Numbered from the stretch's first letter, positions 2,917 through 20,165 are shown. The stretch is 64,000 nt of DNA from Patescibacteria group bacterium (GCA_041917855.1 JAYRWT010000044.1:21563-85562), one strand, 5' to 3'. Numbers and translations: made by a program. The notes: generated by a model from the letters alone, not told the origin.

Positions 2917-2985
2917 TTGCCCCCTTTTTCATCTACATTTCATCTCACAAAACTAGACTACGTAAGAAAACTCATAAGGAATTAC

Positions 2986-3522
2986 ATGGAGCAAAAGAAA
3001 CCAAATACAACGGTAATCACGGTCGGTGTTCTAGCTCTCGTTCTAGCTATAGCCGGGGGAGTATCACTACTAAATAAGCAAGAGACTACCGAAACAGCAG
3101 ATGCTGAATCTAATGACGGATCCAGGCAAACGACTGCGAGTAGCTCTGCGCAAAGCACGCCAACGAGCAGTGCTACAACTACAGCGGCCAGTACCGCTCC
3201 TGCAACTGCCTCTACGGCTGCAAACACATATAAAAACGGTACGTACTCGGCCAGTGGTACCTACAGTACTCCCGGAGGGGCGGAAAGCATAAACGTAACC
3301 TTAACCATAAAAGATGGTGTAGTTACAGACTCTAGCGTTAGCCAGTCAACGACTAACCGTGAGAGTCAGGAATTCTTTAACTCTTTTGCAGCGAGCTACA
3401 AAGGCAAAGTTGTTGGGCAAAAGCTAGAGAGCCTAAGCCTGAGTCGTGTCTCTGGCTCCTCACTCACCCCAAGAGGATTCAACAGCGCCCTGGCAAGCAT
3501 TAAATCAAAAGCAAAGAGCTAG
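2986..3522 (+). CDS. Membrane-anchored extracytoplasmic FMN-binding (FMN_bind) domain protein with Ser/Thr-rich linker
   Basis: Start moved to ATG 2986, which has an AAGGA Shine-Dalgarno 7 nt upstream. N-in signal anchor (KK then hydrophobic stretch), S/T/A-rich linker, and a C-terminal YKNGTYSASGTY...INVTLTIKDGVVTD...RVSGSSLT segment resembling NqrC/RnfG-type FMN_bind domains with an SGAT-like flavinylation motif (SGSS). Confidence 0.6.
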   Translation: MEQKKPNTTVITVGVLALVLAIAGGVSLLNKQETTETADAESNDGSRQTTASSSAQSTPTSSATTTAASTAPATASTAANTYKNGTYSASGTYSTPGGAESINVTLTIKDGVVTDSSVSQSTTNRESQEFFNSFAASYKGKVVGQKLESLSLSRVSGSSLTPRGFNSALASIKSKAKS

Positions 3523-5919: not shown

Positions 5920-6954
5920 CTACTTAAATCCGTCCTTTGCGTAGGAGTAGACCGTTTCAGAGATTTTAGCGATGGTGTGCTCCACCTTGGCCACATCCGA
6001 CGCCTTACTCTTGGTCATGACACAGAGGAGGTAAGGGTGCTCACGGGTGTACACTATGCCACAGTCGTGCAGCTCTCCTTGCTCGGTGCCGCCACTTTTT
6101 TGCACAGTGCCTATGCCAAATTTGTGAGCTACTTTTACTTCACTCGGGACTCCTGCCACAAGACCGCTTTTATAGTCTGTTCGGCTAAGTAGTGCTAGCA
6201 CAGACTCAGAGTTTGCCTTATTCAGGTAAGTGGCATTAAATAGTGTGCGGAAGAAAAGTGAAAACTGGTAAGCCGTCATGTAGTCATCAATGGAGGTGAT
6301 GTTGTCGGGGTAGTGCAGTTGTAGGTCTTGGTAGGCTTGATTAAATTTTTCAATACCAAGATTTCGTAGTAGCACCTGAAAACTAATATTGTCGGAGTAG
6401 TTGATCATGTAGTCGATCAGCTGTGCATTAGTATAGCTCTTGCCAAACTGCGGTACTTCTTTGGGTACAATTGTAGTCCCAGCGTTATAATCAGTAGGAT
6501 CATCGATGGTAATAGTTTGGGTAAGGAGGCCCTGTACTGATTCAGATTCCTTATAGTACTGCAGCATAAGGGGGACCTTTTTCAGGCTAGCTGGGTAAAA
6601 CGTTTCGTCTGGATCAATGCTCATTTCACGACGATTAATAAGGTCACGCAGATAGACCGAAACCTTTGTGATATCACCCCGCGCTTTTGCCTCCGCAATA
6701 GTTTTTTCCAGTGCAGTTTTTACGGCAATCATTTCTTTATAATCATCCCCAGCCGGGTTTGTATCGCAGGTTAGGAGCGGTCTAATGTATGTGTAACCCG
6801 ATAGTCTCAAACAACCAGAAGTAGGGGGAACAACTGTTGTGTTAGGTTTAGAGTACCAGCCTACCCCAAAACCAATAGCCAACAGCGTGGTAGCGCCCAG
6901 TAAAACAGCTGTAGTTTTCCAGGTATGTGAATCAGATTTACGTGTGTTGCTCAT
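5920..6954 (-). CDS. Secreted/anchored serine hydrolase of the beta-lactamase/transpeptidase fold
   Basis: N-terminal membrane anchor; SxxK (ASLKK), SDN (YSDN) and a KFG (KTG-like) motif in the right order. Confidence 0.55.
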   Translation of the reverse strand: MSNTRKSDSHTWKTTAVLLGATTLLAIGFGVGWYSKPNTTVVPPTSGCLRLSGYTYIRPLLTCDTNPAGDDYKEMIAVKTALEKTIAEAKARGDITKVSVYLRDLINRREMSIDPDETFYPASLKKVPLMLQYYKESESVQGLLTQTITIDDPTDYNAGTTIVPKEVPQFGKSYTNAQLIDYMINYSDNISFQVLLRNLGIEKFNQAYQDLQLHYPDNITSIDDYMTAYQFSLFFRTLFNATYLNKANSESVLALLSRTDYKSGLVAGVPSEVKVAHKFGIGTVQKSGGTEQGELHDCGIVYTREHPYLLCVMTKSKASDVAKVEHTIAKISETVYSYAKDGFK

Positions 6955-6989
6955 GGCTACATACTAACAAATTCTTCAGTCGCGTGTAG

Positions 6990-9425
6990 CTAGCGAATTA
7001 TTGTGCTTTCGCTGGCAAAAAATCGATGCTTGGCAATTTCAACAACACCTAGGTAGAGGGCAACTATACTGGCAATAGTAAGAAGGGCTGGGAAAGGTAG
7101 GGGGGTAAATCCAAGAAGGGAGCCAATAGGGAGCACGGTAATTAACCAGCTAACTCCTACTGCAGCAGATGCTCCTATAAGCAGGGTCAGACTAGGGCTG
7201 CTCTGTAGGAAGGGGATCTTTTTCGTGCGAATAATGTATACGACCAGCGTTTGGGTTGCTAACGACTCCAAAAACCATCCAGTTTGAAAGCTGCCATTTA
7301 GTAGGTTAAAGCCCCAATACAGCACACCAAAGGTCATAAAATCGAATACTGAACTGATTGGACCAAATACTAGCATAAAGCGCTTAATCTCTTGTATGTG
7401 CAGGCGGCGCGGCTTGAGAATCTCTTCTTCGTCTACATTGTCGCTGGGCAGGGCAAACTGCGAGGCCTCGTAGAGTAGATTATTTAATAGAACTTGTGTT
7501 GGTAGCATGGGGAGAAAGGGAAGGATGACGGAAGCGCCGGCCATGGAAAATACATTGCCGTAGTTAGAGGCAAGTACCATGCGCAGGTATTTGAGGGTAT
7601 TCACAAATGTTTTACGTCCCTCGCGTACGCCCCCTACGAGATCCTGCAAGCTTTTGTGCAGCAAAATAAGGTCGGCTGAATCTTTGGCAATATCGGTGGC
7701 GTTGTTAACAGAGATCCCCACATCTGCGGCGCGTAGTGAAGGGGCGTCGTTAATACCATCACCCATGTACCCAACTACGTTACCTGCCTTTTGTAGGGTT
7801 TGGATAATCCTGAGCTTCTGCTCTGGATTAACTCTTGCAAAAATACTTATCTCTCGTACAGCCTTCTCTAGTTGCTGGGGTGAGAGCGTATCTAGTTGGT
7901 CACCAGTAACTACACCTGTAACGGGTAGCGAGATATCTTGAGCAATACGTTGAGTAACGAGCTCGTTATCTCCAGTAATAATCTTGATTGCAATACCTAA
8001 GCGCTGCATTTCAGCCAAGGTGGGTGCAGCGGTTAGCTTGGCAGGATCAAGAAAGGCGACAAACCCCTGAAAACTCATGTCCTTTTCTTCAGTTGTTTCG
8101 TAACTTGCTTTACGCTTTACCACCCGAGAAGCTATGGCGAGCACCCTAAACCCGTCTCGGCTCAGCTGCTGGTAGGTTTTTTTAGCAACGGCTCGGGTGG
8201 CGGCATCGTCAAACTCACTACATACTCGCATTACTCCTTCAGGCGAGCCCTTGGCAATTAATAAAATCTTTCCTGCGTGCTCAACAACAACTGACTCTCG
8301 TCGTCGTTCAAAGTCAAAGGGCAGCTCATCAATCTTTTTGTACGATTTACTGTCCAAATGCCTAAAGTCGCGGATGGCATCATCGAGGGGATTCTTAAAG
8401 CCGGTAGTGAGTACACTATTTAAATAGGCATAGAGTAGTGTTGCATCGCAGGTTTTCCCAGCTCCATCTACGTATTTAACTAGTGAAATGTGATCTTCAG
8501 TTAATGTGCCTGTTTTATCTGTGCAGAGCACATTCATGCTACCGAAATTTTGTAGCGAGGAAAGTTTCTTGACGATTACGCCATGCTTGGCCATGGCTAA
8601 TGAACCCTTAGTTAGGTTAAGGGTTATGATCATGGGTAGTAGCTCGGGGGTGATACCTACGGCAAGTGCAATGGCAAAGAGTAGAGAGGTTAGCGCACTA
8701 CCTTTCAGAATGGTATTAACCGCAAAAACAACTATCACCAAAATGAGGGCTACTCGCAGTATTAGAAAGCTAAAGTCACGTATCTCACGATCAAATTCAG
8801 TGAGTCCAACCTTAGTATTAAGCGCAACAACCACCTTACTAAACTGCGTGGCCGCCCCTGTTTTTGTCACCTGCATAATTCCCTCACCACTGGATATGCT
8901 GCTACCCATGTAGAGTTCGCTGCCAACATTTTTTGCTTGTGGATAGGCCTCGCCGGTGAGTGAGGACTCGTTGCTAAATAAGTGTGTGGCGGCCACCACG
9001 TTGCCATCGGCGGGAACAATGTCTCCAGCTGAAAGAATCACAATGTCGCCAGGAACAAGCGCGCTCACTGGAATATTGCTCTGCTCTGCATCGCGTATAA
9101 CGGTGACGGTAATCCTTACACGCTTCTTTAATTCCTGCGCGGCTTTATCTGACTTATAGCTATTTACTGCGTCAAAAATGCTGCTCGCCAAAACTATGAG
9201 AATAATGATGGCTGAGCTTAGGGTTTCGCCAAAGTAGGCGGAGAGAGCTGCTGCTACTAGCAAAATTATGCCGAGCGGGTTCTTAAAGGAAGTTACTAAA
9301 AAAGAAAGAAGTGTATGATTCTTACGAATCTCAATTTCATTTGGTCCGTACTGGAGCGTGAGGCGAGTAATATCCTTACTGCTCAATCCAGTTTTGAACG
9401 GCGGTGTATGTAGTGGTGCCGGCAT
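6990..9425 (-). CDS. P-type cation-transporting ATPase, MgtA-like (Mg2+ importer type)
   Basis: 811 aa; DKTGTLT phosphorylation motif, TGDN, and the MGDGINDAPSLRAADVGISV hinge motif. The N-terminal region resembles MgtA. Confidence 0.85.
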   Translation of the reverse strand: MPAPLHTPPFKTGLSSKDITRLTLQYGPNEIEIRKNHTLLSFLVTSFKNPLGIILLVAAALSAYFGETLSSAIIILIVLASSIFDAVNSYKSDKAAQELKKRVRITVTVIRDAEQSNIPVSALVPGDIVILSAGDIVPADGNVVAATHLFSNESSLTGEAYPQAKNVGSELYMGSSISSGEGIMQVTKTGAATQFSKVVVALNTKVGLTEFDREIRDFSFLILRVALILVIVVFAVNTILKGSALTSLLFAIALAVGITPELLPMIITLNLTKGSLAMAKHGVIVKKLSSLQNFGSMNVLCTDKTGTLTEDHISLVKYVDGAGKTCDATLLYAYLNSVLTTGFKNPLDDAIRDFRHLDSKSYKKIDELPFDFERRRESVVVEHAGKILLIAKGSPEGVMRVCSEFDDAATRAVAKKTYQQLSRDGFRVLAIASRVVKRKASYETTEEKDMSFQGFVAFLDPAKLTAAPTLAEMQRLGIAIKIITGDNELVTQRIAQDISLPVTGVVTGDQLDTLSPQQLEKAVREISIFARVNPEQKLRIIQTLQKAGNVVGYMGDGINDAPSLRAADVGISVNNATDIAKDSADLILLHKSLQDLVGGVREGRKTFVNTLKYLRMVLASNYGNVFSMAGASVILPFLPMLPTQVLLNNLLYEASQFALPSDNVDEEEILKPRRLHIQEIKRFMLVFGPISSVFDFMTFGVLYWGFNLLNGSFQTGWFLESLATQTLVVYIIRTKKIPFLQSSPSLTLLIGASAAVGVSWLITVLPIGSLLGFTPLPFPALLTIASIVALYLGVVEIAKHRFFASESTIIR

Positions 9426-9506
9426 ATGCTCTACCAGTATACATCTGGTTACCTTAAAAAAGTGGGGGCTTTGTGCTAGACTACAGCCAAATCAGTAAGC
9501 CATCCT

Positions 9507-9761
9507 ATGAATTGTCCAGTATGCAGTGCGAACTTGGTTATGTCTGAGCGTTCTGGGGTAGAGATCGACTACTGTCCTCAGTGTCGCGGTGTTTGGTTAG
9601 ACCGCGGTGAGCTCGACAAGATTATCGAAAAAGCAGAAGGAGCAACTCCAGCAGCGCAACGTGCTCCCCAGCCACAGCAACACTACCCGCAGCACGACCG
9701 ACACGAGCATCGCCCGCACAAGCGACGTGAGTCATTCTTGGGTGATTTATTCGACTTTTAG
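9507..9761 (+). CDS. Zinc-ribbon protein (TFIIB-type zf family) with basic His/Arg-rich tail
   Basis: CPVC...CPQCRGVWLDRGELDKI matches the bacterial zf-TFIIB-like pattern. Confidence 0.6.
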   Translation: MNCPVCSANLVMSERSGVEIDYCPQCRGVWLDRGELDKIIEKAEGATPAAQRAPQPQQHYPQHDRHEHRPHKRRESFLGDLFDF

Positions 9762-9766
9762 CCGAG

Positions 9767-10495
9767 CTACAAGCTCCGCTCTAGCTTAGAGATTGGGTCG
9801 TACCAACCATGCTCTAGGGCAAAGGTCTGGATCTTTTTGTCGTAGCCAAATAGTATTGCAAGTCCAATCAAAATAAAGAGCAACCCAATGCCTCTGCGGA
9901 CTATGCCCTGGGGGTTAGCTAGCGAGCGTAGCCGGCTGCTAATCTTTTTACCGAGCAGCGCAATAGCAAGTAGCGCTATGCCTAGGCCTAGAGCATAGGC
10001 AGTCAGGTGTACAAACCCCTCTGCGAATGATCGGGGCAAGATAATGGCCACTATTAAAGCATAAGTCGGGCTGCAGCTATTGAATACAGGTCCAAGTGCT
10101 GCGCCAATTAAGAAATTTCCGAGTACTCCTTGTTTTTTAGCACTTTGGTTGAGTAGTGCATCTGACTGTTTTTGTAAGCCTGCCCTTATACTAATTGCGT
10201 CCCAAAGCTGAGGAAGCACTAGGGTCATGCCAAATAATACAAGGATAGATGCAGAGATTGCTTGCCAGAATAAATCAGGGATATTTAGTAGGGCCGTAGA
10301 TGCCTTGAGCAGCAAGGTGAACACAATCACCGAAGCAATTAGGCCGGCAATAATTTGATAGGGAGCAGCTTTAGAGCTTGCCTGTTGCTCCGTACGCACA
10401 ATACTGCCACCTAAAATAACCGGCAGTAGCGGCAGTACACAGGGAGCGGCCACGGTAAGGAAGCCAGCGAAAAAAGAACCAAGCAGCTCAATCAT
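9767..10495 (-). CDS. ccdA: CcdA/DsbD-family transmembrane thiol:disulfide electron transporter
   Basis: 242 aa polytopic membrane protein; conserved Cys in TM1 (AAPCVLPLLPV) and a CcdA-like architecture. Confidence 0.8.
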   Translation of the reverse strand: MIELLGSFFAGFLTVAAPCVLPLLPVILGGSIVRTEQQASSKAAPYQIIAGLIASVIVFTLLLKASTALLNIPDLFWQAISASILVLFGMTLVLPQLWDAISIRAGLQKQSDALLNQSAKKQGVLGNFLIGAALGPVFNSCSPTYALIVAIILPRSFAEGFVHLTAYALGLGIALLAIALLGKKISSRLRSLANPQGIVRRGIGLLFILIGLAILFGYDKKIQTFALEHGWYDPISKLERSL

Positions 10496-10996
10496 TTACA
10501 GAATATTCTTGATCAGTGCTGTTAGGCTTGGGTCACTCGAAGCGACAAAACTTGCCTCAAGCTTGCCATCGTCACCAACGCGAACCAAGGTGGTTTGTAC
10601 CTTTACGCCATAGGTTTTGCGCAGCGCTTGGTTAGAATCATAGTCAACTTTAATAATCGTTACACCCTGAGGAATTTTACCTGATCGAATACTCGCGTCG
10701 AGTGCGCGGCAGTCTGGACACCACGAGGCATGAAAGAAAAGAATCTTCTTGCCAGACGTTTTCTCAATAATGCCCGGCTCATAGGTAGTATAGGTTCCTG
10801 TGCTCGCAGTGTTGGCTTGCGCCGAAGCAGTGACACTAGCGACCGAAGCACTTGCTGTAGGAGTAGGAGTGCTCTCAGCTACTTGATTGCTATTCATAGT
10901 GCTCTGGCGCATATAGGCATATACGCCACCTGCAACAAGTACCAACGCACCAACCAGGATAAAAACCATCTGAGGAGTTTGGGATTTTTGCTTCAT
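10496..10996 (-). CDS. Membrane-anchored thioredoxin-like protein (TlpA/ResA type)
   Basis: Signal anchor, S/T-rich linker, WCPDC active-site motif. Confidence 0.8.
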   Translation of the reverse strand: MKQKSQTPQMVFILVGALVLVAGGVYAYMRQSTMNSNQVAESTPTPTASASVASVTASAQANTASTGTYTTYEPGIIEKTSGKKILFFHASWCPDCRALDASIRSGKIPQGVTIIKVDYDSNQALRKTYGVKVQTTLVRVGDDGKLEASFVASSDPSLTALIKNIL

Positions 10997-11059: not shown

Positions 11060-12052
11060 GTGTACACTAAATCTATGATGCAGGTGACAAATAAAAACTT
11101 TTGGGATCCAAGTGGCATCGGTTTTAACGAGGCTGTTTGGGTAGAAGCTTATGCAGGCTTTGCGGAAACATACGCAAAATCAACAAATTTAATCCAGCTG
11201 CGCCGTAAGAGAAGAATCCTACTAACTATTGGTTGGGTGGGTATGATGGTTATGCCTGCGTTGGTTGGCTACGCCACGTATGCCCTAAAGCTATCACTAG
11301 ATGGTAATATTTTGTTTTTATTGTGTATTAGCTGGATGCCGTACTTGGCCATGTACGGTAATCTGAAAAAGATGCAGCACGATATCGCCAAGCTGCAAAT
11401 AGCAAAGGAAAAAGGATGGACCTACTGGCCAAGTGAAGACCGTGATCGCTATGGTCGATTATCTACCCTGTACCCTGCGGTATTTAATGTTGGCACTAGC
11501 TCCCAATACTTTTCAGATGAGTTTTGGGGAGAGCAGCCGGGGAAACATTTGACTACACCTTTTTGGGTTGCCGACTTTACCTACACCGTGGGTAGCGGTA
11601 AAAACGAAACAGTGATTCACGAAACTGCATTTGCGGTGCACTTAGCGCGTCCTGTGCAAACAGAATTAACAATCCTACCGGAAAACTTTGCTACGCGCGT
11701 GGCTAATGTTTTCACCCGTTCAGATATACAACTTGAATCTGCCGAGTTTAACCAAAAATTTCACCTAAGCTATGCGGCGGACAATGACGTACAAAAGAAA
11801 CAAAAAATATTTCAAGTTCTTAATCCGCCGGCGATGGCAACACTGTTAGATATTAACGATCACATTGGAAGGTTCAGGCTTACATTTAAGGATGATGTAA
11901 TTGCTGGCAGCTTCAGTAATCAAATTTTTAGACCAAAGTATTCAAACTTTTTTAAGAGCACGGCGGTTGACCCGCGTGACTTGCAAAACCTGAATGATTT
12001 TTTAACAAAGATCACCACGCTTGCTACTCAGCTCTCCTTTGATTTGGATTAA
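11060..12052 (+). CDS. Hypothetical membrane-associated protein
   Basis: 330 aa; internal hydrophobic helices (LLTIGWVGMMVMPALVGYATYAL, ILFLLCISWMPYLAMYG); no recognisable catalytic motifs. Confidence 0.4.
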   Translation: MYTKSMMQVTNKNFWDPSGIGFNEAVWVEAYAGFAETYAKSTNLIQLRRKRRILLTIGWVGMMVMPALVGYATYALKLSLDGNILFLLCISWMPYLAMYGNLKKMQHDIAKLQIAKEKGWTYWPSEDRDRYGRLSTLYPAVFNVGTSSQYFSDEFWGEQPGKHLTTPFWVADFTYTVGSGKNETVIHETAFAVHLARPVQTELTILPENFATRVANVFTRSDIQLESAEFNQKFHLSYAADNDVQKKQKIFQVLNPPAMATLLDINDHIGRFRLTFKDDVIAGSFSNQIFRPKYSNFFKSTAVDPRDLQNLNDFLTKITTLATQLSFDLD

Positions 12053-12114: not shown

Positions 12115-12681
12115 TTGATACGGCGTGTATTTTTTCATGTGTATACTGAGTGTGTGAATCCAGAGGAAGTCTATCGTCTGCATGTTAAGTCAGTGCACCG
12201 CTACTTTTACTATAAGGGCGTCACTATTAATGATGTAGAGGATCTTGTGCAAGAGTCTTTCTTTAGATTTTTTCAGGCCTATCCCGATCAACGCTCAGAA
12301 GTAGATACTCGCAAGATCCTCTATGTAATTTCACGGAATGTCTGGCGCGAGTGGGTGCGTAATCAGCTAAAACACCGGGTTTACGAATTAGATGAGCTAA
12401 AAGCCATCCCTGAAACGGCAGAAGATTTCTCAGAAGAAGATCCAGCAGAATACGATGGCCAGCGCGCTGTGTTGTTGGCTGTCATTGAGAAGCTAAACCC
12501 AACAGTTAAAGCAGTTTTAACCATGCGATTTATTGATGGAAAAACTAGGAAAGAGATAGCAGCACACCTAGGGATTGCTGAAAAAGATGTGCATACCTAT
12601 CAAAAACGCGGTATTAAATCCTTACACAAACTAGTTGCAAAAGATAAGTCGCTGGGAGAAGTTGTACCCCCTGCTGCATAA
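12115..12681 (+). CDS. ECF-type RNA polymerase sigma-70 family factor
   Basis: Region-2-like segment (DVEDLVQESFFRFF) and region-4 HTH (TRKEIAAHLGIAEKDVHTYQKRGIKSL). TTG start assumed. Confidence 0.7.
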   Translation: MIRRVFFHVYTECVNPEEVYRLHVKSVHRYFYYKGVTINDVEDLVQESFFRFFQAYPDQRSEVDTRKILYVISRNVWREWVRNQLKHRVYELDELKAIPETAEDFSEEDPAEYDGQRAVLLAVIEKLNPTVKAVLTMRFIDGKTRKEIAAHLGIAEKDVHTYQKRGIKSLHKLVAKDKSLGEVVPPAA

Positions 12682-12686
12682 ACTAA

Positions 12687-14222
12687 GTGGAGATGCATAT
12701 GTTTTCCAAACTATTTACCAACCTACGCCATGCTCTCTACCGTTCGCGCAAGCCTCTCTCTCCGGAGGAGCAGCAGGCAAGTGAAGACAGGGTGTGGCAA
12801 GGCCTCGCTACGAGGTTAAACAACCAATCAATGACTCAGAATGTCACTACGGCCAAGTCAGGTCGCAACAGCCTTTCATTTTTGCTGCCCGCGCTAGCCT
12901 TTGTGCTCGTGCTTGGGGTGGTCGCAACTATGGTGTATCGCCCTCAGCAAAACAAGGAGAAAAATCAGGTAGCAAGCAACGACGTAACAAGTGTCAAAGT
13001 AAACCCGGATATTGTTAACGATGTAGGTGTTGTCGCTCGTAAGCAAGGAGCTACGTCAAATGGAGTGGTTGGCTACGTACCTAAGCCAAAAAAAGCTGCC
13101 CAAGCCAGTCTTTTTGCTAGCACCGCATACGCTGCAGAAGACGAGTACACACCAGTTTTGTTCTACACCAAGAGCAATGCAGGCACACAGTCCCAATTAT
13201 TCTCTTATGATATTACATCAGGTACAGAGAAAGCTCTTACCTCTGCTGACGATTACGCTACAACACCTGTATTTAGTTCAAAAGGTCAGAAGCTGGCATA
13301 CAATATTTTGACGGGTCCAAACTCTAGTATGTTCCGCCCATGTCAGATTGCTATTCAGGACCACACCACAGGTAAGGTGATCGCCACTATCCAAAAGGAT
13401 GATACCCGCTGCCTTATTCCCGTTAGCTGGTCTGCAGACGGTAATTACTTAGTCATTACTGATGACTTTAAGGGTCGTCCACTAGATATCAGTGAGGACT
13501 CGATTATCCCTAAGACCGACACTCATGTACGTGTGTATAACGTGGCTACAAACGTACTTAGCGATTACGTTGAGCCAACAAATCAAGGTGATTGCTTTTC
13601 ATCTGGCGGGTGGAAGGATGATGTAAACTTTTATATCCATTGCTCTACATACGGTGTAAAAGTAGGTAGCGAAAAGCGAAGCGTGTTTAGCATCAACGTC
13701 GACACAAAAGTCGCAACAGAATTTACAGCGCCAACTCAATCGTTCTATGGATTTCAGCGTGTGGGTAATGACGACTTTTACATGGCAAGTATTCCACCAA
13801 AGAATCCTAAGCCAAATAGTAGTTACAGTCCGTATCGTATTGTGCGGCGCTCAGCCACAGACACGGAGCCATTTGTCTACCCGTTTAGTCAAATGACCTC
13901 CAACTTCATGGTGAGTAAAACAAGTAATGGTTCGGCAGGATATGTTGTCGCTGGTCAAACCACCGCAGATTGGTTCGCAGATGAAGATCCTGATGCCAAA
14001 ACCAGTCCGAGTTGGTTGGCCAAGGGTGGTGTGGTCATGTTTGATGTTAAAACAGGTAAGCCGACTCACTTTAATACCGCAAAAGGTTATGTTGAGTTAG
14101 TTGGTTGGTATGGTGATTATACTCACATTATTTACGTGAATAGTGAAGATAGCGGTGCACGTCAGTATCGTCTGCTCAACCTGCAGGATGGCAAGGATAG
14201 CCTAATCAAGAGTGTTGAGTAA
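12687..14222 (+). CDS. Putative anti-sigma factor: cytoplasmic N-terminus, one TM helix, extracytoplasmic TolB/WD40-like beta-propeller domain
   Basis: Directly downstream of the ECF sigma; TM at about aa 62-85; the large extracytoplasmic part has propeller-like repeats (FYTKSNAGTQSQLFSYDITSG, SWSADGNYLVITDD). Confidence 0.5.
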   Translation: MEMHMFSKLFTNLRHALYRSRKPLSPEEQQASEDRVWQGLATRLNNQSMTQNVTTAKSGRNSLSFLLPALAFVLVLGVVATMVYRPQQNKEKNQVASNDVTSVKVNPDIVNDVGVVARKQGATSNGVVGYVPKPKKAAQASLFASTAYAAEDEYTPVLFYTKSNAGTQSQLFSYDITSGTEKALTSADDYATTPVFSSKGQKLAYNILTGPNSSMFRPCQIAIQDHTTGKVIATIQKDDTRCLIPVSWSADGNYLVITDDFKGRPLDISEDSIIPKTDTHVRVYNVATNVLSDYVEPTNQGDCFSSGGWKDDVNFYIHCSTYGVKVGSEKRSVFSINVDTKVATEFTAPTQSFYGFQRVGNDDFYMASIPPKNPKPNSSYSPYRIVRRSATDTEPFVYPFSQMTSNFMVSKTSNGSAGYVVAGQTTADWFADEDPDAKTSPSWLAKGGVVMFDVKTGKPTHFNTAKGYVELVGWYGDYTHIIYVNSEDSGARQYRLLNLQDGKDSLIKSVE

Positions 14223-14258
14223 GTAGTGCGGCCGCTAGCGGCATAGGGCAGTAGGCTA

Positions 14259-14292
14259 GTAGAGTAAGGGGGAGACACCCCTTACTCTACTG
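14259..14292 (+). terminator. Strong perfect hairpin (14-bp stem, 6-nt loop) between the anti-sigma gene and the heliorhodopsin gene; terminator or attenuator
   Basis: AGTAGAGTAAGGGG-gagaca-CCCCTTACTCTACT; no T-tract follows. Confidence 0.5.
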
Positions 14293-14361
14293 TGTGTGGC
14301 TACACGTCACTACTTCCTTTGTAGAACTATGTATACTAAACGTACATAAGTAACCTATGCC

Positions 14362-15126
14362 ATGCAAAGCCAAAAAACCTTTAGCACCCTTAACCGATAC
14401 AATCTTGTAGCGGCGCTCCTGCACGCTGTGCAGGGTATTGCCGTGATTATTCTTAGTCGAGATTTTTCTCTGCCGATAAGTACTAGTTTCTTAAAGTTTG
14501 ATACAGCTAGCCAGACCTTACTTCCGTCTAGCGATACTGTGTTTAACCTTTCGCTGCCAGCACTACTAGCAGGTTTCTTCTTTCTCTCCGCTCTCTTTCA
14601 CCTAATTATTGCTACGTTCTACCGCAAAACCTATGAGACTAACCTAGAGGTTGGCCTCAATAAGGCGCGTTGGCATGAGTACTCTATTTCGGCCAGCGTA
14701 ATGATGGTGGCTATCTCACTCTTGGTAGGTATTTACGATCTTGGTAGCTTGCTCATGATTTTTGGACTCACTTGGGGAATGAACCTTATGGGCTTAGTCA
14801 TGGAAGTGCACAACCAAACAACCAAGACAACCAGCTGGCTGTCTTACTGGGTTGGCTGTGTGCTCGGGGCTATCCCATGGTTGGTGGTGGCACTCTACCT
14901 GTGGTCAGGCTACGCGAATGGCAGTGCTGCTCCAACCTTTGTATACTGGATTTTTGTTTCAATCTTTGTGTTCTTCAACTGTTTTGCCATCAACATGTGG
15001 CTGCAGTACAAGCAAATTGGTCCCTGGAAGAATTACCTGTACGGCGAGCGTGCGTACATGATCTTAAGTCTGGTTGCAAAAACACTACTAGCCTGGCAGG
15101 TATTTGGCGGAACACTCCGTCCTTAG
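14362..15126 (+). CDS. Heliorhodopsin (7-TM retinal-binding protein, inverted topology family)
   Basis: 254 aa; collinear similarity to heliorhodopsin 48C12 along the whole length (NRYNLVAALLHAVQGIAV; WHEYSISASVMMV with the counterion Glu; FVYWIFVSIFVFFNCFA; GERAYMILSLVAKTLLAWQVFGGTL with the Schiff-base Lys). Confidence 0.85.
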   Translation: MQSQKTFSTLNRYNLVAALLHAVQGIAVIILSRDFSLPISTSFLKFDTASQTLLPSSDTVFNLSLPALLAGFFFLSALFHLIIATFYRKTYETNLEVGLNKARWHEYSISASVMMVAISLLVGIYDLGSLLMIFGLTWGMNLMGLVMEVHNQTTKTTSWLSYWVGCVLGAIPWLVVALYLWSGYANGSAAPTFVYWIFVSIFVFFNCFAINMWLQYKQIGPWKNYLYGERAYMILSLVAKTLLAWQVFGGTLRP

Positions 15127-15146: not shown

Positions 15147-15178
15147 AAAAAGAGGTCGCTTCATCGCGACCTCTTTTG
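15147..15178. terminator. Bidirectional rho-independent terminator between convergent genes
   Basis: AAAAAGAGGTCGC-ttcat-GCGACCTCTTTT, a perfect 9-bp stem flanked by A/T runs on both strands. Confidence 0.7.
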
Positions 15179-15188
15179 CTGTAACCGA

Positions 15189-16100
15189 TTACTGGCAGTA
15201 GTCACTTGTTTTACCTTCGGTACCTGATCCTGGTAGTGCTTTTGCTGTAGTAGCGTCAGGCTCTGGCAGCGCATTCAACCAGCAGGTTCCGTAGTAGCTG
15301 AGCTCGGTAAATTGCCCCACTTTTTTCTGGAAGGTCGTTGAGCGTGAGGCTTGGTTGGCTTGGCGTAAATCGTATACACCAAAGTCAAAGCTGACGTTGC
15401 TGGTAGCACGGAACCCAACTTCTGTAGCTATAGCTGTTCCTTTACTAAAGCTTAAACCACTGGGAAATGGTGTGGTTTGCGACGCATCCTTCTTGGCGGC
15501 TGGTAAGTGCGCATCTACAAGTTTCTGCAGCTCTGGCGTAAGGGTAAGCAGGTGGTCGTAGCGGAGTAGATAGCCGCAAGGGTGAACAAAGTCGAGCATG
15601 GTTTGTACCTCTCCAGCTTCAATGTAGCGCGAGCCTCGCAGAAGTGAGCTATCAAGTGCTAGTGTCACCCCTACAGCGTTGCGTGTACCTGTTTGACTCT
15701 GCCCATCAAAGCGAAAACCGCCGTGAGGTTTGTAGTTACCGCCCCGCGTTTGACCGGGGTATAGAATGGCCGTGGCAAGCTGTATGTTTGTGGGTGTGGC
15801 AAGCCCAAGTGGGGTTGGGCAACTTGGTGCCGATCCTAAAGCCTTCCAGCCCTCACCGCTATACGACCAGGATACTGCCGTACTAGGCTCTGTGGCCTTG
15901 GGACTACTTGCCGCTGTGGCCTTTGTACTGCTCGCCGGCGTTTTGCTGGTTTCGGTGCCGGACTTGTCGGTGGCGGTGTCTGCAGTGTTTTCGGTGCGCG
16001 GGCGCATTGCAGCCGTGGCTCCTAAAATTACGCCAATGATAACTACAGTAGATAATCCAATAATAAGGATTCGACTTGGGTGAGGGGTAGGGTTGGGCAT
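15189..16100 (-). CDS. Hypothetical membrane-anchored secreted protein with Thr/Ala/Ser-rich linker
   Basis: N-terminal signal anchor, low-complexity linker, C-terminal globular domain with Cys residues; no recognisable family. Confidence 0.45.
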   Translation of the reverse strand: MPNPTPHPSRILIIGLSTVVIIGVILGATAAMRPRTENTADTATDKSGTETSKTPASSTKATAASSPKATEPSTAVSWSYSGEGWKALGSAPSCPTPLGLATPTNIQLATAILYPGQTRGGNYKPHGGFRFDGQSQTGTRNAVGVTLALDSSLLRGSRYIEAGEVQTMLDFVHPCGYLLRYDHLLTLTPELQKLVDAHLPAAKKDASQTTPFPSGLSFSKGTAIATEVGFRATSNVSFDFGVYDLRQANQASRSTTFQKKVGQFTELSYYGTCWLNALPEPDATTAKALPGSGTEGKTSDYCQ

Positions 16101-16174
16101 ATGAGTGCTGCAGGGTTATATGTGTGCCTACAGTATACAGGGCTTTCTTCTGATAACACTAGCCATACCCCCAG

Positions 16175-16203
16175 ACATAAAAAAGAGAGGTCGCGATTAC
16201 GCG
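16175..16203 (-). terminator. Rho-independent terminator of the minus-strand Gmk-like gene
   Basis: AGAGGTCGCG-att-CGCGACCTCT, a perfect 10-bp stem, followed by a T-run on the minus strand. Shares the AGAGGTCGC core with the 15147-15178 hairpin. Confidence 0.7.
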
Positions 16204-16233
16204 ACCTCTTTCAGTTTTTGCTTGCTACCTGAT

Positions 16234-17046
16234 CTAGGCAATTGATTCACGCACCACAGATACAATGCGCTCAATTGTGTCGTTGACCAAGTAGCAGGTT
16301 GCAATGCTGCCATCATAGGTTGCGCCAAACTCGTTTACCTGGCGCATGCCAAGGGTAGAGTCGTAGGCTGCTAAGCTTTCCTGTTCACCACTGTCCTCCA
16401 TGCGTTTTTGTAGACGCTCAAGCAATGTGTCGAACACAGGATCAGGTGGTAGCAAGTAGATGAGGGCAGCTCCTGTGGTTTCTTGATCTAGGCCAGCAAC
16501 AAGCTGGGCAACTACCTCAGCCGATTCCTCTACAAGACAGAGAGGGCTCTGCAGAGCTGCTTCTAGATGGGCTCTCTGAAAGCCATACCAGCCGCGCCCC
16601 TCGCGGAACTTTTTGGTTACAAGTTCTCCGTTTGCCTCTAGCTGTTTGTAGACTTCTTCAGTTACAAAGTGGTAGTCCACGCCGTCTGTCTCGTTTTCAC
16701 GAGGTTTGCGGGTTGTGGTGTTCAAGAGACGAGTCGCGCCGGTTTCGTTCAAGACTGCCTGAATAAAGGTTCCCTTGCCAACAGCGCCAGGGCCGTTGAT
16801 GGCCAGTACGCGCCGGGGTTTAGCCAGTGCGTCCGTAAGGTTGGATCGCGTTGCCGCCTCTAGGGTTGCAACAACCGATTCGTTCGGGACAGTATCCTGC
16901 CCCTGCCAGTAGTTGAGTGCGCTGCTGAGTGCATCCCGCCACCCTTGGCGCATGGTCGCGGTGAACTGCTGTAACTCACGCTGTTGAGTGGGGGAAGGTG
17001 TTTCTGCCATGGGGTTAGTTTTAGCAAAAATATGCAATTTTGACAA
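16234..17046 (-). CDS. Guanylate kinase-like P-loop nucleoside monophosphate kinase with ~70-aa N-terminal extension
   Basis: P-loop INGPGAVGKGT and the Gmk hallmark TTTRKPRENETDGVDYHFVTEEVY. Confidence 0.6.
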   Translation of the reverse strand: MSKLHIFAKTNPMAETPSPTQQRELQQFTATMRQGWRDALSSALNYWQGQDTVPNESVVATLEAATRSNLTDALAKPRRVLAINGPGAVGKGTFIQAVLNETGATRLLNTTTRKPRENETDGVDYHFVTEEVYKQLEANGELVTKKFREGRGWYGFQRAHLEAALQSPLCLVEESAEVVAQLVAGLDQETTGAALIYLLPPDPVFDTLLERLQKRMEDSGEQESLAAYDSTLGMRQVNEFGATYDGSIATCYLVNDTIERIVSVVRESIA

Positions 17047-17207: not shown

Positions 17208-17828
17208 TTGACACAACGAGGTATTGGAATCGTCCTCATGGGCCCCCCGGGCTCAGGCAAGGGCACACTTGGTGAGCGACTGCTCGCCACCGACTGGGGA
17301 AGAACGAAACTTAAACGAGTAGTCTCCCACACTGACCGACCAAGGCGAGAAAGTGATCACGAAGGGCAATACGAGTTCATCACTAAAGAAGAGATGGATG
17401 CAGTCTTTGCCGAGAGTGGCTGGGCAACACACGGTGAAATGAATGGTATTCGCTATGTGTACCGGCGCAGCAGCATCTTGAGTATTGTGGAAGCGGGCGA
17501 GGTGCCCCTACTCGATATTCGCACGCAGACACTAGCACGGCTAGTGACGAACGTGCCTGAGCTTGATTTTGCTGCTATGCTGGTTCACCCTGGCAATGTG
17601 CAAGACCTGCTTAACAGGATCATCGGCCGCGATGGCGACTCGCCATCAAGTCGGGACCGTGCCGCTCTTGCGGTAGATGAGTATGCCTGTGCTCGTACAC
17701 TGCTGCGGCAGCGCCCAGGCCTCTACACTACCATCTATAACCGAGATGGCGAGCAAGAAGCAGCCTTTGGCGCCATGCTTACTTTCTTGGGCAAGTATGT
17801 GCCTGAACTCATTGCGGTTCCGGCGTAA
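17208..17828 (+). CDS. Guanylate kinase-like P-loop kinase (paralog, divergently transcribed)
   Basis: P-loop LMGPPGSGKGT and TDRPRRESDHEGQYEFITKEEM, i.e. a Gmk-like TTRPxR...DGxDYxFV pattern with TDR in place of TTR. Confidence 0.55.
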   Translation: MTQRGIGIVLMGPPGSGKGTLGERLLATDWGRTKLKRVVSHTDRPRRESDHEGQYEFITKEEMDAVFAESGWATHGEMNGIRYVYRRSSILSIVEAGEVPLLDIRTQTLARLVTNVPELDFAAMLVHPGNVQDLLNRIIGRDGDSPSSRDRAALAVDEYACARTLLRQRPGLYTTIYNRDGEQEAAFGAMLTFLGKYVPELIAVPA

Positions 17829-17968
17829 TCGATCGTTTGGTCATTCTGATTGGGGCGCGCGTAGGCGTGCCCCGTTTTTTATTTCCTTTAGTCAGCGTAG
17901 CGCCAATCGTAGTTTGTAGTTGGTCAGAACTCCATCGTATACTAGTGGTATCACACTTAACATGTACT

Positions 17969-19381
17969 ATGGGCACACATAAGGTATCTCCTGTTCTTTG
18001 GATTGGTTTGATCGTAGTTTTGCTTGGTGGGGGTGTGGCGGTATATAGCCAGCGTAATACAAAAGAAGAGCAGGGCAAGAATCAAGCTGTTGATAAAAAA
18101 GAAGATCAGGGTAAAACTACAGGTGCGCTCACACCTGCAAAATCGAATGGGTACACAGGCTTAGCTGGTGACGTTATTAGCAGTAGCGCGTTCGAGTGTC
18201 AGCCGCGTAGCGAGCACGAGTGGTATCGTACCGATCGTACTTTTGCAGTAGATCCTAAGAATCCACAGGTGATGTACACCAGTGTGGAGTATAAGGGTGT
18301 GTACAAATCTGTCGATGGCGGTACAACCTGGAAGTCTGCCAGCAAGGGGATTCGCGCCTACAGTCGCCAGGATGACAAAACAAAGCCCTGCTATAGCGAG
18401 TATCCGGTGATCAAGATTAACCCCAAGGACAGCAATCACATCGTGATCGCTATCAGTAGTGGCGGCGGTGGCCATCTACACCCAACTAACATGAACCAGC
18501 AAGTGGGCGGTGTCTACCAGAGCTTTAACGCAGGTGAAAGTTGGGAACTGATGATTGATAACACCATGAACACCTATGTTACTGACGTGGTATTTGACGC
18601 CGATGGCGCGGTATACTACGGCACAGCTTCTAACCCAGGATCGTGGACCGAGGCTGACCAGAACCAGCTCTTCGTCAGCAAGGGGCTTATCTATAAAACC
18701 AGCGACAAGGGGAACACCTGGACTGAGCTGCCAACCGGCATTGGCAGCCGAACCTCGGCGACTAAGGTGTTCGTCAACCCGGCAAATACCCAGCAGATTA
18801 TGGCTCCGACCTACTCGGCAGTGCGACAATCGGCTGATGGCACGGGGACGGGTATCAGCACGGGTAAAGATACAAACGTAGCTCAGCTGGGAATTTTAAG
18901 CTCAAGTGATGCTGGTAAAACCTGGAAGCGCATTGCGCTGCCTGGAAACGTGCCGGTGCTGAGTGCCGCAGTTTCGTCAGCCAAGTTTGCTAACCAGATC
19001 TACATTAGTGCAACAACCGACGAGTCCTTTGTTACCTTTGACGCAGGCGCTACTTTTACCAAAACCAAGTACCTGAACACCGTCGCCTACGACCCATTCG
19101 ACGCGACTGGCAAGCACCTGCTAGCCTACAGTATGCAGTCCATGAACGGGCCAGGGCTAAATTTACACGAGAGCCTTGACGGTGGGCTTACCTGGAAAGC
19201 AAAAGGCTCGCTGCCACGCGAGATTACTGACCTGAACGATAAAAAGACCCGCGTCAGCAACCTATTCTGGCACCCAACCGACAAGAACACTATCTATATG
19301 AATGGTGCTTCCGGGTACCTATGGGTCAGTACCGACCTAGGTACAACCTGGAAGCGTCTACTTACCTATACTGACTTATAA
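17969..19381 (+). CDS. Secreted BNR/Asp-box repeat protein (sialidase-/Ycf48-like beta-propeller)
   Basis: Start moved to ATG 17969 (MGTHKVSPVLWIGLIVVLLGG signal anchor). Five or more SxDxGxTW Asp-box repeats (SVDGGTTW, SDKGNTW, SSDAGKTW, SLDGGLTW, STDLGTTW). Confidence 0.65.
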   Translation: MGTHKVSPVLWIGLIVVLLGGGVAVYSQRNTKEEQGKNQAVDKKEDQGKTTGALTPAKSNGYTGLAGDVISSSAFECQPRSEHEWYRTDRTFAVDPKNPQVMYTSVEYKGVYKSVDGGTTWKSASKGIRAYSRQDDKTKPCYSEYPVIKINPKDSNHIVIAISSGGGGHLHPTNMNQQVGGVYQSFNAGESWELMIDNTMNTYVTDVVFDADGAVYYGTASNPGSWTEADQNQLFVSKGLIYKTSDKGNTWTELPTGIGSRTSATKVFVNPANTQQIMAPTYSAVRQSADGTGTGISTGKDTNVAQLGILSSSDAGKTWKRIALPGNVPVLSAAVSSAKFANQIYISATTDESFVTFDAGATFTKTKYLNTVAYDPFDATGKHLLAYSMQSMNGPGLNLHESLDGGLTWKAKGSLPREITDLNDKKTRVSNLFWHPTDKNTIYMNGASGYLWVSTDLGTTWKRLLTYTDL

Positions 19382-19382
19382 T

Positions 19383-20165
19383 ATGAAGCCTCACTCTCAC
19401 TCAAAAGTTATTTTAGTTGGTGTTGCAGTTGTGCTGGTCTGTGGCGGCATTGTGGCCTTTACTTCGGGGAGGAAGGATACCAAAACTGGAGGGCAGCAGA
19501 TCGAGCAAGGTACGAGCACAAATACTCAGAGAACTACTGAGCCGAAAGAAGCAGATATTGTACTCAAGAACTTGGGCCTCAGTAGCATTGCGGATAGCAC
19601 GGTGTACACACGCTTTGCCGTGCAGGACTATGCAAGTAATGGCATGAAGGGGCTGTATTTGTTTGGTGATAAGCTACCCGGTAACCGCCTGAATCCTAAC
19701 TTTGAGTTTTCTTCGGTCAAGCAGGACGCGCCGGTGATTGCGGCAATTGACGGCATTGTCGCTTTTATTAAGGAGCAGGCCGAAAGTAAGGATTATGAAG
19801 TATTTCTGCAACCAAAAGATGGTTCAATCTGGACAGTAGGCTATGATCACCTAGTTGGGCTAAAGGTAAAGAGGGGAGACAAAGTAAAGACTGGAGATGT
19901 GCTTGGAACGGCGGCGGTGCAGAACAATGGCCTCTATCGCTTTGAGCTCCAAATCAATAAAGATGTAGCTGGGGTTACAACACACCATTGCCCTGTACTA
20001 TTTTTAGACCCAGCAGTTGCGCCAGGTGTGACAGCTGATCTGTCGGCTACCCAGCAAGCCTGGGAGGCGGTAAAGGGTCAGCAAGATCTGTACAACCCTT
20101 CTACTCAGAGCCCAGTTGGGTGCATAAAGACCACTCTGAGCGTTGCGGAGGCGGAGGGTAGGTAG
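19383..20165 (+). CDS. Hypothetical membrane-anchored secreted protein with possible degenerate LytM (M23-like) domain
   Basis: Signal anchor; GYDHL...VKRGDKVKTGDVLGTAA resembles an M23 peptidase core but lacks the HxH metal ligands. Confidence 0.4.
   Translation: MKPHSHSKVILVGVAVVLVCGGIVAFTSGRKDTKTGGQQIEQGTSTNTQRTTEPKEADIVLKNLGLSSIADSTVYTRFAVQDYASNGMKGLYLFGDKLPGNRLNPNFEFSSVKQDAPVIAAIDGIVAFIKEQAESKDYEVFLQPKDGSIWTVGYDHLVGLKVKRGDKVKTGDVLGTAAVQNNGLYRFELQINKDVAGVTTHHCPVLFLDPAVAPGVTADLSATQQAWEAVKGQQDLYNPSTQSPVGCIKTTLSVAEAEGR

Follow-up and report, generated by a model that had tools for sequence, protein, structure and literature searches.

A candidate two-gene envelope-signalling cassette of Saccharibacteria: an ECF sigma factor and a probable propeller-bearing anti-sigma factor next to a heliorhodopsin

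The closest described systems to the locus studied here are canonical pairs such as RpoE-RseA and SigW-RsiW, where a sigma factor made of the sigma2 and sigma4 domains only is followed, at position +1, by a partner with a cytoplasmic N-terminus, one transmembrane (TM) helix and an extracytoplasmic C-terminal sensor (PMC7826278). In the 2.0 classification of extracytoplasmic function (ECF) sigma factors, anti-sigma factors are typically encoded at +1, usually have one TM helix and mostly carry a group-specific cytoplasmic region (PMC7826278). Their class I or ZAS domain is a four-helix domain of ~80-90 amino acids (aa), often with an HxxxCxxC motif. Class II anti-sigma factors of the CnrY type, on the other hand, have a very short helical cytoplasmic segment before the TM helix, which would suffice to embrace an ECF sigma factor; CnrY itself is a small protein devoid of a large sensor domain, and works together with CnrX. 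Here we describe a pair of this general design in a stretch of 64,000 nucleotides (nt), hereafter the window, of a Patescibacteria group bacterium (GCA_041917855.1 JAYRWT010000044.1:21563-85562). The host lineage is Saccharibacteria (TM7, Patescibacteria), and the plus strand encodes, in this order, an ECF sigma factor, a bitopic propeller protein 17 nt further on and, after another 139 nt, a heliorhodopsin (HeR).

On balance, and with moderate confidence, we read positions 12115-14222 as a self-contained envelope-signalling cassette of two genes in this Saccharibacterium, formed by an ECF sigma factor and its cognate single-pass anti-sigma factor, with the heliorhodopsin as an independent transcription unit. 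What the analysis shows directly is that the sigma factor is of the ECF type, that its partner has this topology and a propeller fold, that the two genes are paired in a conserved manner and that an N-terminal motif of the partner co-occurs with the sigma gene. This short cytoplasmic motif is present in just those members of the propeller family that lie behind an orthologous sigma gene. The cassette belongs, as a lineage-restricted example, to a class that is well known, that of ECF sigma factors paired with group-specific single-pass anti-sigma factors, and its novelty is modest. The three open reading frames (ORFs) named in the original prediction, for the sigma factor, the bitopic protein and the heliorhodopsin, are all present on the plus strand, and the features of the locus are as follows.

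12115-12681, plus strand: ECF (group 4) sigma factor of the sigma-70 family; maximal ORF, identified by TIGR02937, Pfam domains and 14 relatives
12687-14222, plus strand: bitopic membrane protein at position +1 with one TM helix, probably the cognate anti-sigma factor; maximal ORF of 511 aa
12689-12692, plus strand: GGAG Shine-Dalgarno sequence in the 17-nt junction of the two genes, 6 nt 5' of the ATG at 12699, as read from the sequence
12699-12872, plus strand: cytoplasmic N-terminal module, two helices with a conserved motif, proposed as the sigma-binding part (alignments A2 and A5; AF2)
12873-12938, plus strand: single TM helix, residues 63-84 (Kyte-Doolittle maximum 2.64; AF2 helix 66-84)
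12939-13061, plus strand: extracytoplasmic low-confidence linker (pLDDT <50 at residues 85-123; conserved columns in A2)
13062-14219, plus strand: sensor domain, a PD40-type beta-propeller of 7 blades that lacks a catalytic domain
14362-15126, plus strand: heliorhodopsin, neighbour of the cassette (PF18761, NF038020, SLVAK motif)

The product of the first gene scores 72.3 bits against TIGR02937 (sigma70-ECF; cutoff 42.9), and passes the Pfam cutoffs for Sigma70_r2 (24.9 against 24) and Sigma70_r4_2 (43.5 against 25.7), with no match to region 3 in the same Pfam scan. A score above the family threshold, with sigma2 and sigma4 domains alone, places it among the ECF (group 4) factors of the sigma-70 family, in agreement with the ECF-type sigma factor originally proposed. 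The NCBIfam equivalog and subfamily models all stay far under their cutoffs (the BldN family, for example, at 69 bits versus 206). We found 14 relatives, at 40-99% identity. Translation probably starts at the GTG at 12154 (175 aa), because the ‘NPEEVY’ found there aligns with the N-termini of orthologues (MTPEKIY, MISEQIY and MDQEGVY); gene callers on identical contigs pick an alternative start at 12139.

The bitopic partner probably begins at the ATG at 12699 (507 aa), a start favoured by the GGAG that precedes it and by orthologues that begin at the equivalent ‘MF’. The earlier description of a cytoplasmic N-terminus of 60 aa followed by one TM helix stands as to the helix, and the length comes to ~58 aa from this start. 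This N-terminus is net-positive, and AF2 places helices at residues 5-19 and 26-47 (pLDDT 72-89). Run on the single sequence, AF2 was uninformative (pLDDT 41); run with a 26-sequence alignment, it gave a pLDDT of 79 and a pTM of 0.72, with an all-beta fold from residue 126 to the end. The extracytoplasmic part thus modelled consists of a disordered linker of ~40 aa and a propeller of ~385 aa. The linker holds the family-conserved G129 and Y130 of a ‘GY.K’ motif, after which an ‘A.A...Y.P..FY’ motif opens the propeller. Foldseek gave the predicted propeller an E-value of 6e-10, and 1.6e-8 for TolB, while the profile of the partner family matched TolB sequences at 1e-9; the extracytoplasmic propeller of roughly 420 aa, TolB/WD40-like, that had been called from the sequence was essentially right.

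Relatives of the partner were not easy to find. A word-index homology search with the 511-aa protein recovered only the protein itself. They came from an exhaustive HMMER search over 1.84 billion cluster representatives, which yielded 40 in all, 14 with E<=1e-10. The family is modular: in alignment A2 the TM helix, the ‘GY.K ... A.A...Y.P..FY’ linker and the propeller are common to all members, whereas the cytoplasmic motif ‘L..L.R.RKPL(S/T).EEQ.ASE.RVW..L’ occurs in a subset only (the window protein, P0016, P0019, P0020, P0022, P0028 and P0034). The remaining members (P0017, P0018, P0021, P0023-P0027, P0029-P0033 and others) have low-complexity N-termini, rich in P, S, T and E, in place of the sigma-linked motif.

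Every member with the motif (7/7) lies directly 3' of an orthologous ECF sigma gene. Pairs with the sigma gene at +0 and the bitopic gene at +1, separated by 9-77 nt, were found in the window, in loci L082, L084, L092 and L095 and in the contig of P0034; in L091 the contig breaks 95 nt 5' of the partner, and the stub still encodes the C-terminus of the sigma factor, ‘VHTYQKRAIHTLHKVV’. None of the motif-lacking members with readable context (0/2; P0021 and P0023, in loci L093 and L094) follows a sigma gene, the gene before them being an Rce1-like gene or a divergent gene (Fisher p ~0.03 for the contrast). Moreover, the two proteins diverge in parallel across loci, 58% identity of the sigma factor going with 33% of the partner, and 45% with 25%. 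As the motif tracks the upstream sigma gene in this way, we regard the partner as a probable cognate anti-sigma factor whose short two-helix, sigma-linked module would be new. The body made of TM helix, linker and propeller has a role independent of sigma factors in these CPR-like genomes, because the motif-lacking members checked adjoin no sigma gene.

A related arrangement is seen in L086 (451-3333), where the gene of a more distant sigma orthologue (44% identity) precedes that of a 776-aa bitopic protein. Its N-terminus is similar in pattern, and its extracytoplasmic part is unrelated to the propeller of the window (14% identity), which suggests that different sensor domains may have been swapped onto a common sigma-linked N-terminus.

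Set beside the RpoE-RseA and SigW-RsiW pairs, the partner has the same layout. Its cytoplasmic module has only ~58 aa and two helices, lacks HxxxCxxC and shows no profile similarity to RseA_N, zf-HC2 or RskA, and the sensor is a 7-bladed PD40 propeller, in a candidate phyla radiation (CPR) host with a genome of ~1 Mb and few regulators. The autoregulatory AAC...CGT promoter of those systems was not found at the sigma gene of the window, where, in a test of low power, the 260 nt upstream hold no AAC-N14-19-CGT/GTC. As in most ECF groups (PMC7826278), the cytoplasmic region is group-specific and matches no Pfam model. The resemblance to the CnrY type lies, by description only, in the short helical cytoplasmic segment ahead of the TM helix, and unlike CnrY the window partner carries a large propeller sensor domain. 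TolB is a periplasmic protein of the Tol-Pal context, with an N-terminal alpha/beta domain and a 6-bladed PD40 propeller; the window protein shares with it the type of blade only, being anchored by an N-terminal TM helix to the membrane of a monoderm-like CPR cell. It lacks the N-terminal domain of TolB, scores 25 bits against TIGR02800 (cutoff 343) over about two blades, and has no tol or pal genes near its cassette. Nor does it belong with the S9 peptidases (S9 prolyl-oligopeptidases), whose propeller domains, like that of Tricorn, count among the nearest known systems; it lacks a C-terminal alpha/beta-hydrolase catalytic domain.

The action of the cassette may be pictured from these parts. 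The short two-helix cytoplasmic N-terminus of the anti-sigma factor would sequester the sigma factor at the membrane, while outside the cell the 7-bladed PD40 propeller would recognise a ligand from the cell surface or from the host, probably peptide or glycan in nature. The sigma factor could then be set free when the ligand binds or damage occurs, through a conformational change or because the anti-sigma factor undergoes regulated proteolysis. The physical binding of the sigma factor by its partner, the signal and the release mechanism are steps that we infer. As for the heliorhodopsin, a recent rearrangement at the species level has probably placed it beside the cassette.

A different account of the second gene would make it an envelope propeller for surface binding or scaffolding, co-transcribed with the sigma factor or its main target, and not an anti-sigma factor; control of the sigma factor would then come from elsewhere. 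Several results weigh on that side and against the role that we propose. The original prediction had asked whether the N-terminus resembles anti-sigma profiles such as RskA and zf-HC2, and no anti-sigma profile (zf-HC2, RskA, RseA and others) matched the whole partner (at E<=1), the 26 family members or, at E<=10, the isolated N-terminal modules; the best match of the N-terminus, NF052375 at E 0.011, is far under its cutoff, and a profile of the N-termini had no meaningful match among the solved structures of the PDB. This negative is a real one, given that the same tools recognise the anti-sigma factor of locus L065 described below (RskA_C 1.1e-14, zf-HC2 2.4e-8). The protein is not of the class I/ZAS type, having no zf-HC2 (PF13490) match, no Cys in residues 1-62 and two predicted helices, and it is not of the RskA type, with no match to RskA_C (PF10099) or to the RskA N-terminal domain. 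At ~58 aa and two helices, its cytoplasmic part falls short of a class I domain; most family members have the same TM helix, linker and propeller with neither the motif nor, where checked, a sigma gene; and the motif-lacking class had readable context for two members only. In addition, the upstream regions of six orthologous sigma genes share no bipartite motif (the best, in 3/6, equals the shuffle null, in a comparison of low power).

Against these points, the exact coincidence of the motif with the sigma gene is hard to explain otherwise, the identities of both proteins fall together, and a gene at +1 whose product has one TM helix is what anti-sigma factors typically look like (PMC7826278). 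The partner falls within the operational definition of an anti-sigma factor used in that work: its gene is adjacent at +1, and the protein has a TM helix (at least one is asked for) as well as a conserved cytoplasmic region whose occurrence follows that of the sigma factor. Since most putative anti-sigma factors match no Pfam anti-sigma model (PMC7826278), a test by RskA and zf-HC2 profiles is too strict. The original pairing of sigma and anti-sigma factor therefore stands on context (position +1, 17-nt gap, one TM helix, and the distribution of the motif) and does not stand on profiles, and we consider a propeller with no anti-sigma function unlikely.

The heliorhodopsin poses a separate question. 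The product of the third gene, which had been placed directly downstream on the same strand, is indeed a heliorhodopsin: it scores 318.9 bits (E 2.5e-95) against PF18761 and 321.5 bits against NF038020, both above threshold, and carries the retinal-lysine motif SLVAK (SxxxK, in TM7), which is the commonest such motif among CPR heliorhodopsins (PMC9166423). The published partners of these proteins include glutamine synthetase (PMC9529153), photolyase (PMC9769723) and histidine kinase contexts (PMC8612252). Like them, the HeR of the window lies beside a candidate signalling gene on the same strand. Unlike them, it is not within 10 bp or recurrent across phyla: the operon criterion for HeR partners asks for one strand and a gap of <10 bp (PMC8612252), whereas here 139 nt with a 15-bp hairpin separate the genes, and the orthologous adjacency is limited to a single species.

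The distribution of the arrangement was followed from both sides. HeR loci were surveyed in species-representative genomes (80 loci, ~50 of them from Saccharibacteria, L002-L052, the closest at 80% HeR identity), and those nearest to the HeR of the window come nearly all from Saccharibacteria or Saccharimonadales metagenome-assembled genomes (MAGs). Within 10 kb of the ~50 Saccharibacteria HeRs there were no relatives of the sigma factor, of the propeller protein or of other window neighbours. From the side of the cassette, none of the five other loci whose downstream sequence is readable has an adjacent HeR; what follows 3' is a MazE/PemK pair, convergent genes, MscL or small ORFs. The order sigma, anti-sigma and HeR was found only in contigs of the same species, 99-100% identical to the window (L001, L088 and L089); sequencing runs SRR26835159 and SRR19611630 contain identical contigs. 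In the closest cassette from another species (L082, 10140-10711), a MazE/PemK toxin-antitoxin takes the place of the HeR and RecA/RecX lie upstream, which indicates that the neighbours of the cassette change freely.

Two loci of the survey are unusual in their own HeR content: L042 has two extra fragments of a HeR C-terminus 3' of the HeR (11399-11491 and 12184-12282, 79-81% identical to residues 222-254), and L043 has two full HeR genes (2356-3093 and 10001-10759), 7 kb apart.

The spacer between the cassette and the HeR, and the region beyond it, hold the following elements.

14257-14292, plus strand: perfect 15-bp stem with a 6-nt loop that ends the cassette (RNA fold z -3.2 to -3.4)
14330-14337, plus strand: TGTATACT, a -10-like element 24 nt 5' of the HeR start, proposed as HeR promoter
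15148-15177, no strand assigned: canonical bidirectional intrinsic terminator between the HeR and the convergent 303-aa gene (12-bp GC-rich stem, A- and U-tracts, z -4.8)

We propose that the hairpin at 14257-14292 may be terminator-like or may stabilise the transcript. It has no clean U-tract, unlike the canonical terminators nearby (the one listed above and a second one with a U-tract near 16184-16211), and for this reason some read-through into the HeR is possible, a point against the independence of the two units. Equivalent hairpins lie 3' of the cassette in three of the four orthologous loci checked (L082, L084 and L092; two with U-tracts), from which the two-gene unit looks normally self-contained.

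The element TGTATACT before the HeR resembles a generic promoter element, because TATA[AC]T is about eight-fold enriched 5' of the genes of the window (8/63 within 50 nt, versus ~1 expected). The 8-mer itself has five copies in the 64 kb where 1.8 are expected, a count reached in 3/100 shuffles: 9436-9443 (minus), 12140-12147 (plus), 14330-14337 (plus), 16132-16139 (minus) and 14940-14947 (plus). Four of them are in promoter position, 5' of the genes for a P-type ATPase, the sigma factor, the HeR and the 303-aa protein, all within 7 kb, and there is no other intergenic copy in the window. Judging from the spacing, the mRNAs of the ATPase and sigma genes would be leaderless or nearly so. TGTATACT was rejected as a specific regulatory site, given that TATACT also precedes unrelated genes and that the four sites have no common -35 element; a generic TG-TATACT -10 element is the probable reading, in spite of the local clustering. 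Upstream of the HeR a scan for AAC-N14-19-CGT/GTC found none, which covers the ECF promoter motif (AAC-N16-17-CGT-like) that the original prediction proposed to look for there. A lone GAAC...CGTA site 5' of the HeR was discarded as an ECF promoter for its 13-nt spacer, which is too short; in the window as a whole GAAC-N12-18-CGTA is at chance level (10 versus 9.5 expected).

Sigma genes do adjoin HeRs elsewhere, in unrelated arrangements. For this search a general sigma profile was seeded with the family of the window, the Caldisericota sigma factors and E. coli RpoE (as seed only) and iterated to convergence; as a check for narrowness of the model, the hits did not change after seeding with RpoE and iterating. 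In the 80 loci of the survey, sigma genes occur solely beside the HeR, with none 1-10 kb away. Seven Caldisericota (Cryosericum-type) loci (L053, L054, L056 at 8429-10774, L057, L061, L067 and L080) have the HeR divergent to an ECF sigma gene, with 62-250 nt between the maximal ORFs; downstream of the sigma gene come, in turn, genes for a single-TM protein of 223 aa, unmatched in Pfam, and for a DUF4349 protein. They are broadly syntenic and were counted as one event, and the most divergent of them, L067, retains only the trio of anti-sigma-like gene, sigma gene and HeR. In L065, a Gaiellales MAG, one strand encodes an ECF sigma factor (1146-1712), an anti-sigma factor with zf-HC2 and RskA_C (1709-2413) and a HeR (2614-3390), in the same order as in the window and with an unrelated type of anti-sigma factor; metagenomic relatives at 91% HeR identity (L096 and L097) lack the arrangement. 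In L075, an Acidimicrobiales MAG (6868-10546), 72 nt separate the HeR (6868-7749) from the gene of an RsbW-like HATPase_c_2 protein, whose match is just under the Pfam cutoff, and next comes a group-3 sigma factor of the SigB type, with a STAS anti-anti-sigma factor ~1.3 kb further on, which makes a partner-switching module beside the HeR. A marginal sigma-like ORF beside the HeR of L049 was set aside as a DUF134 helix-turn-helix protein. In these four unrelated lineages the known or candidate anti-sigma proteins next to a HeR are a bitopic PD40 propeller (window), ZAS/RskA (Gaiellales), an uncharacterised single-TM protein (Caldisericota) and an RsbW type (Acidimicrobiales).

Could the HeR and the sigma/anti-sigma pair, then, form one signalling unit for light and envelope stimuli, as the original prediction had speculated? 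The HeR might touch the TM helix or N-terminus of the anti-sigma factor and so modulate the release of the sigma factor in light, or might itself be a target of the sigma factor, by read-through or from an unrecognised promoter. The common strand, the gap of 139 nt and the hairpin with no U-tract would allow for the latter, and for glutamine synthetase (PMC9529153) and photolyase (PMC9769723) HeRs are known to work through binding to proteins encoded next to them. The non-orthologous modules of three other lineages, with the trio alone retained in L067, also count against an independent HeR: pooled, there are three independent sigma events in 137 evaluable HeR loci, all <1 kb from the HeR, a zone that represents 17% of the 1.66 Mb of HeR flanks (positional p ~0.005, n=3), and no other sigma gene was found within 10 kb of 160 HeR genes. 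However, the absolute rate of 3/137 does not clearly exceed what the usual density of sigma genes across a genome would give. An independent set of 80 metagenomic loci, taken around HeRs related to that of L065 (59-91% identity, 578 kb), contained no sigma gene at all, which leaves the enrichment as a weak lead. The largest published analysis of HeR contexts makes no mention of sigma factors (PMC8612252). At the locus itself, the idea of coupling fails by the refuting condition of the original prediction, because the arrangement is confined to the species of the window, absent as it is from the ~50 Saccharibacteria HeR loci and from the five other cassette loci where its conservation could be followed; the hairpin, the -10-like element of the HeR and the lack of an ECF promoter agree with this. 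Coupling of HeR light sensing to this sigma system is not supported, and a joint light-plus-envelope unit seems to us quite improbable.

The sigma factor could also control a local regulon of nearby envelope genes, among them those for thioredoxin/DsbD, the P-type ATPase, the HeR and the 303-aa protein, in a shared neighbourhood for envelope and oxidative stress. The region is rich in envelope genes, TGTATACT stands in promoter position at three of them and at the sigma gene, and earlier work connects HeRs with genes for oxidative stress (PMC8612252, PMC9166423). Yet the generic nature of the TATACT hexamer, the missing common -35 element and the frequency of the 8-mer count in shuffled sequence all speak against such a regulon, and the neighbour genes are not conserved beside the cassette in other genomes; we hold it to be highly improbable.

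Other genes of the window complete the picture of an envelope-rich neighbourhood, with thioredoxin/DsbD at 9767-10996, a DUF3137-like membrane protein at 11060-12052 and the 303-aa membrane-anchored protein at 15189-16100. Further on, 3 kb 3' of the HeR, lies the gene of a second propeller protein anchored in the membrane, of the BNR/Sortilin-Vps10 type (17837-19381, 514-aa ORF), directly followed by one for an M23 peptidase (19383-20165). Between them and the HeR lie two adjacent and divergent guanylate-kinase-like paralogues (16234-17046, minus, and 17208-17828, plus), which is unusual in a genome of ~1 Mb. A 95-nt tRNA-Asn (anticodon ATT) called by ARAGORN inside the BNR-propeller ORF (18727-18821, minus) had no confirmation in Rfam and is probably a false positive.

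With regard to the function of heliorhodopsins, the main outcome is negative, and a link between HeR and sigma factor is unsupported by this locus. The recurrence of sigma modules beside HeRs across phyla is a weak hypothesis, and a pathway from rhodopsin to sigma factor, in which the HeRs of a minority of lineages would signal through alternative-sigma modules, is in our opinion a long shot; if true, the HeR, once activated by light, would bind the anti-sigma factor in its membrane or cytoplasmic part, and the sigma factor would be released. This sporadic recurrence is worth a systematic census before any experimental investment. For the family of the partner, the occurrence of one propeller body with or without the sigma-linked N-terminus makes the putative anti-sigma module easy to delimit and its definition testable. 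Regulators are scarce in the genomes of Saccharibacteria and of the CPR, and for that reason a conserved sigma/anti-sigma cassette with a propeller sensor at the surface is a plausible handle on how these episymbionts may sense their envelope or their host.

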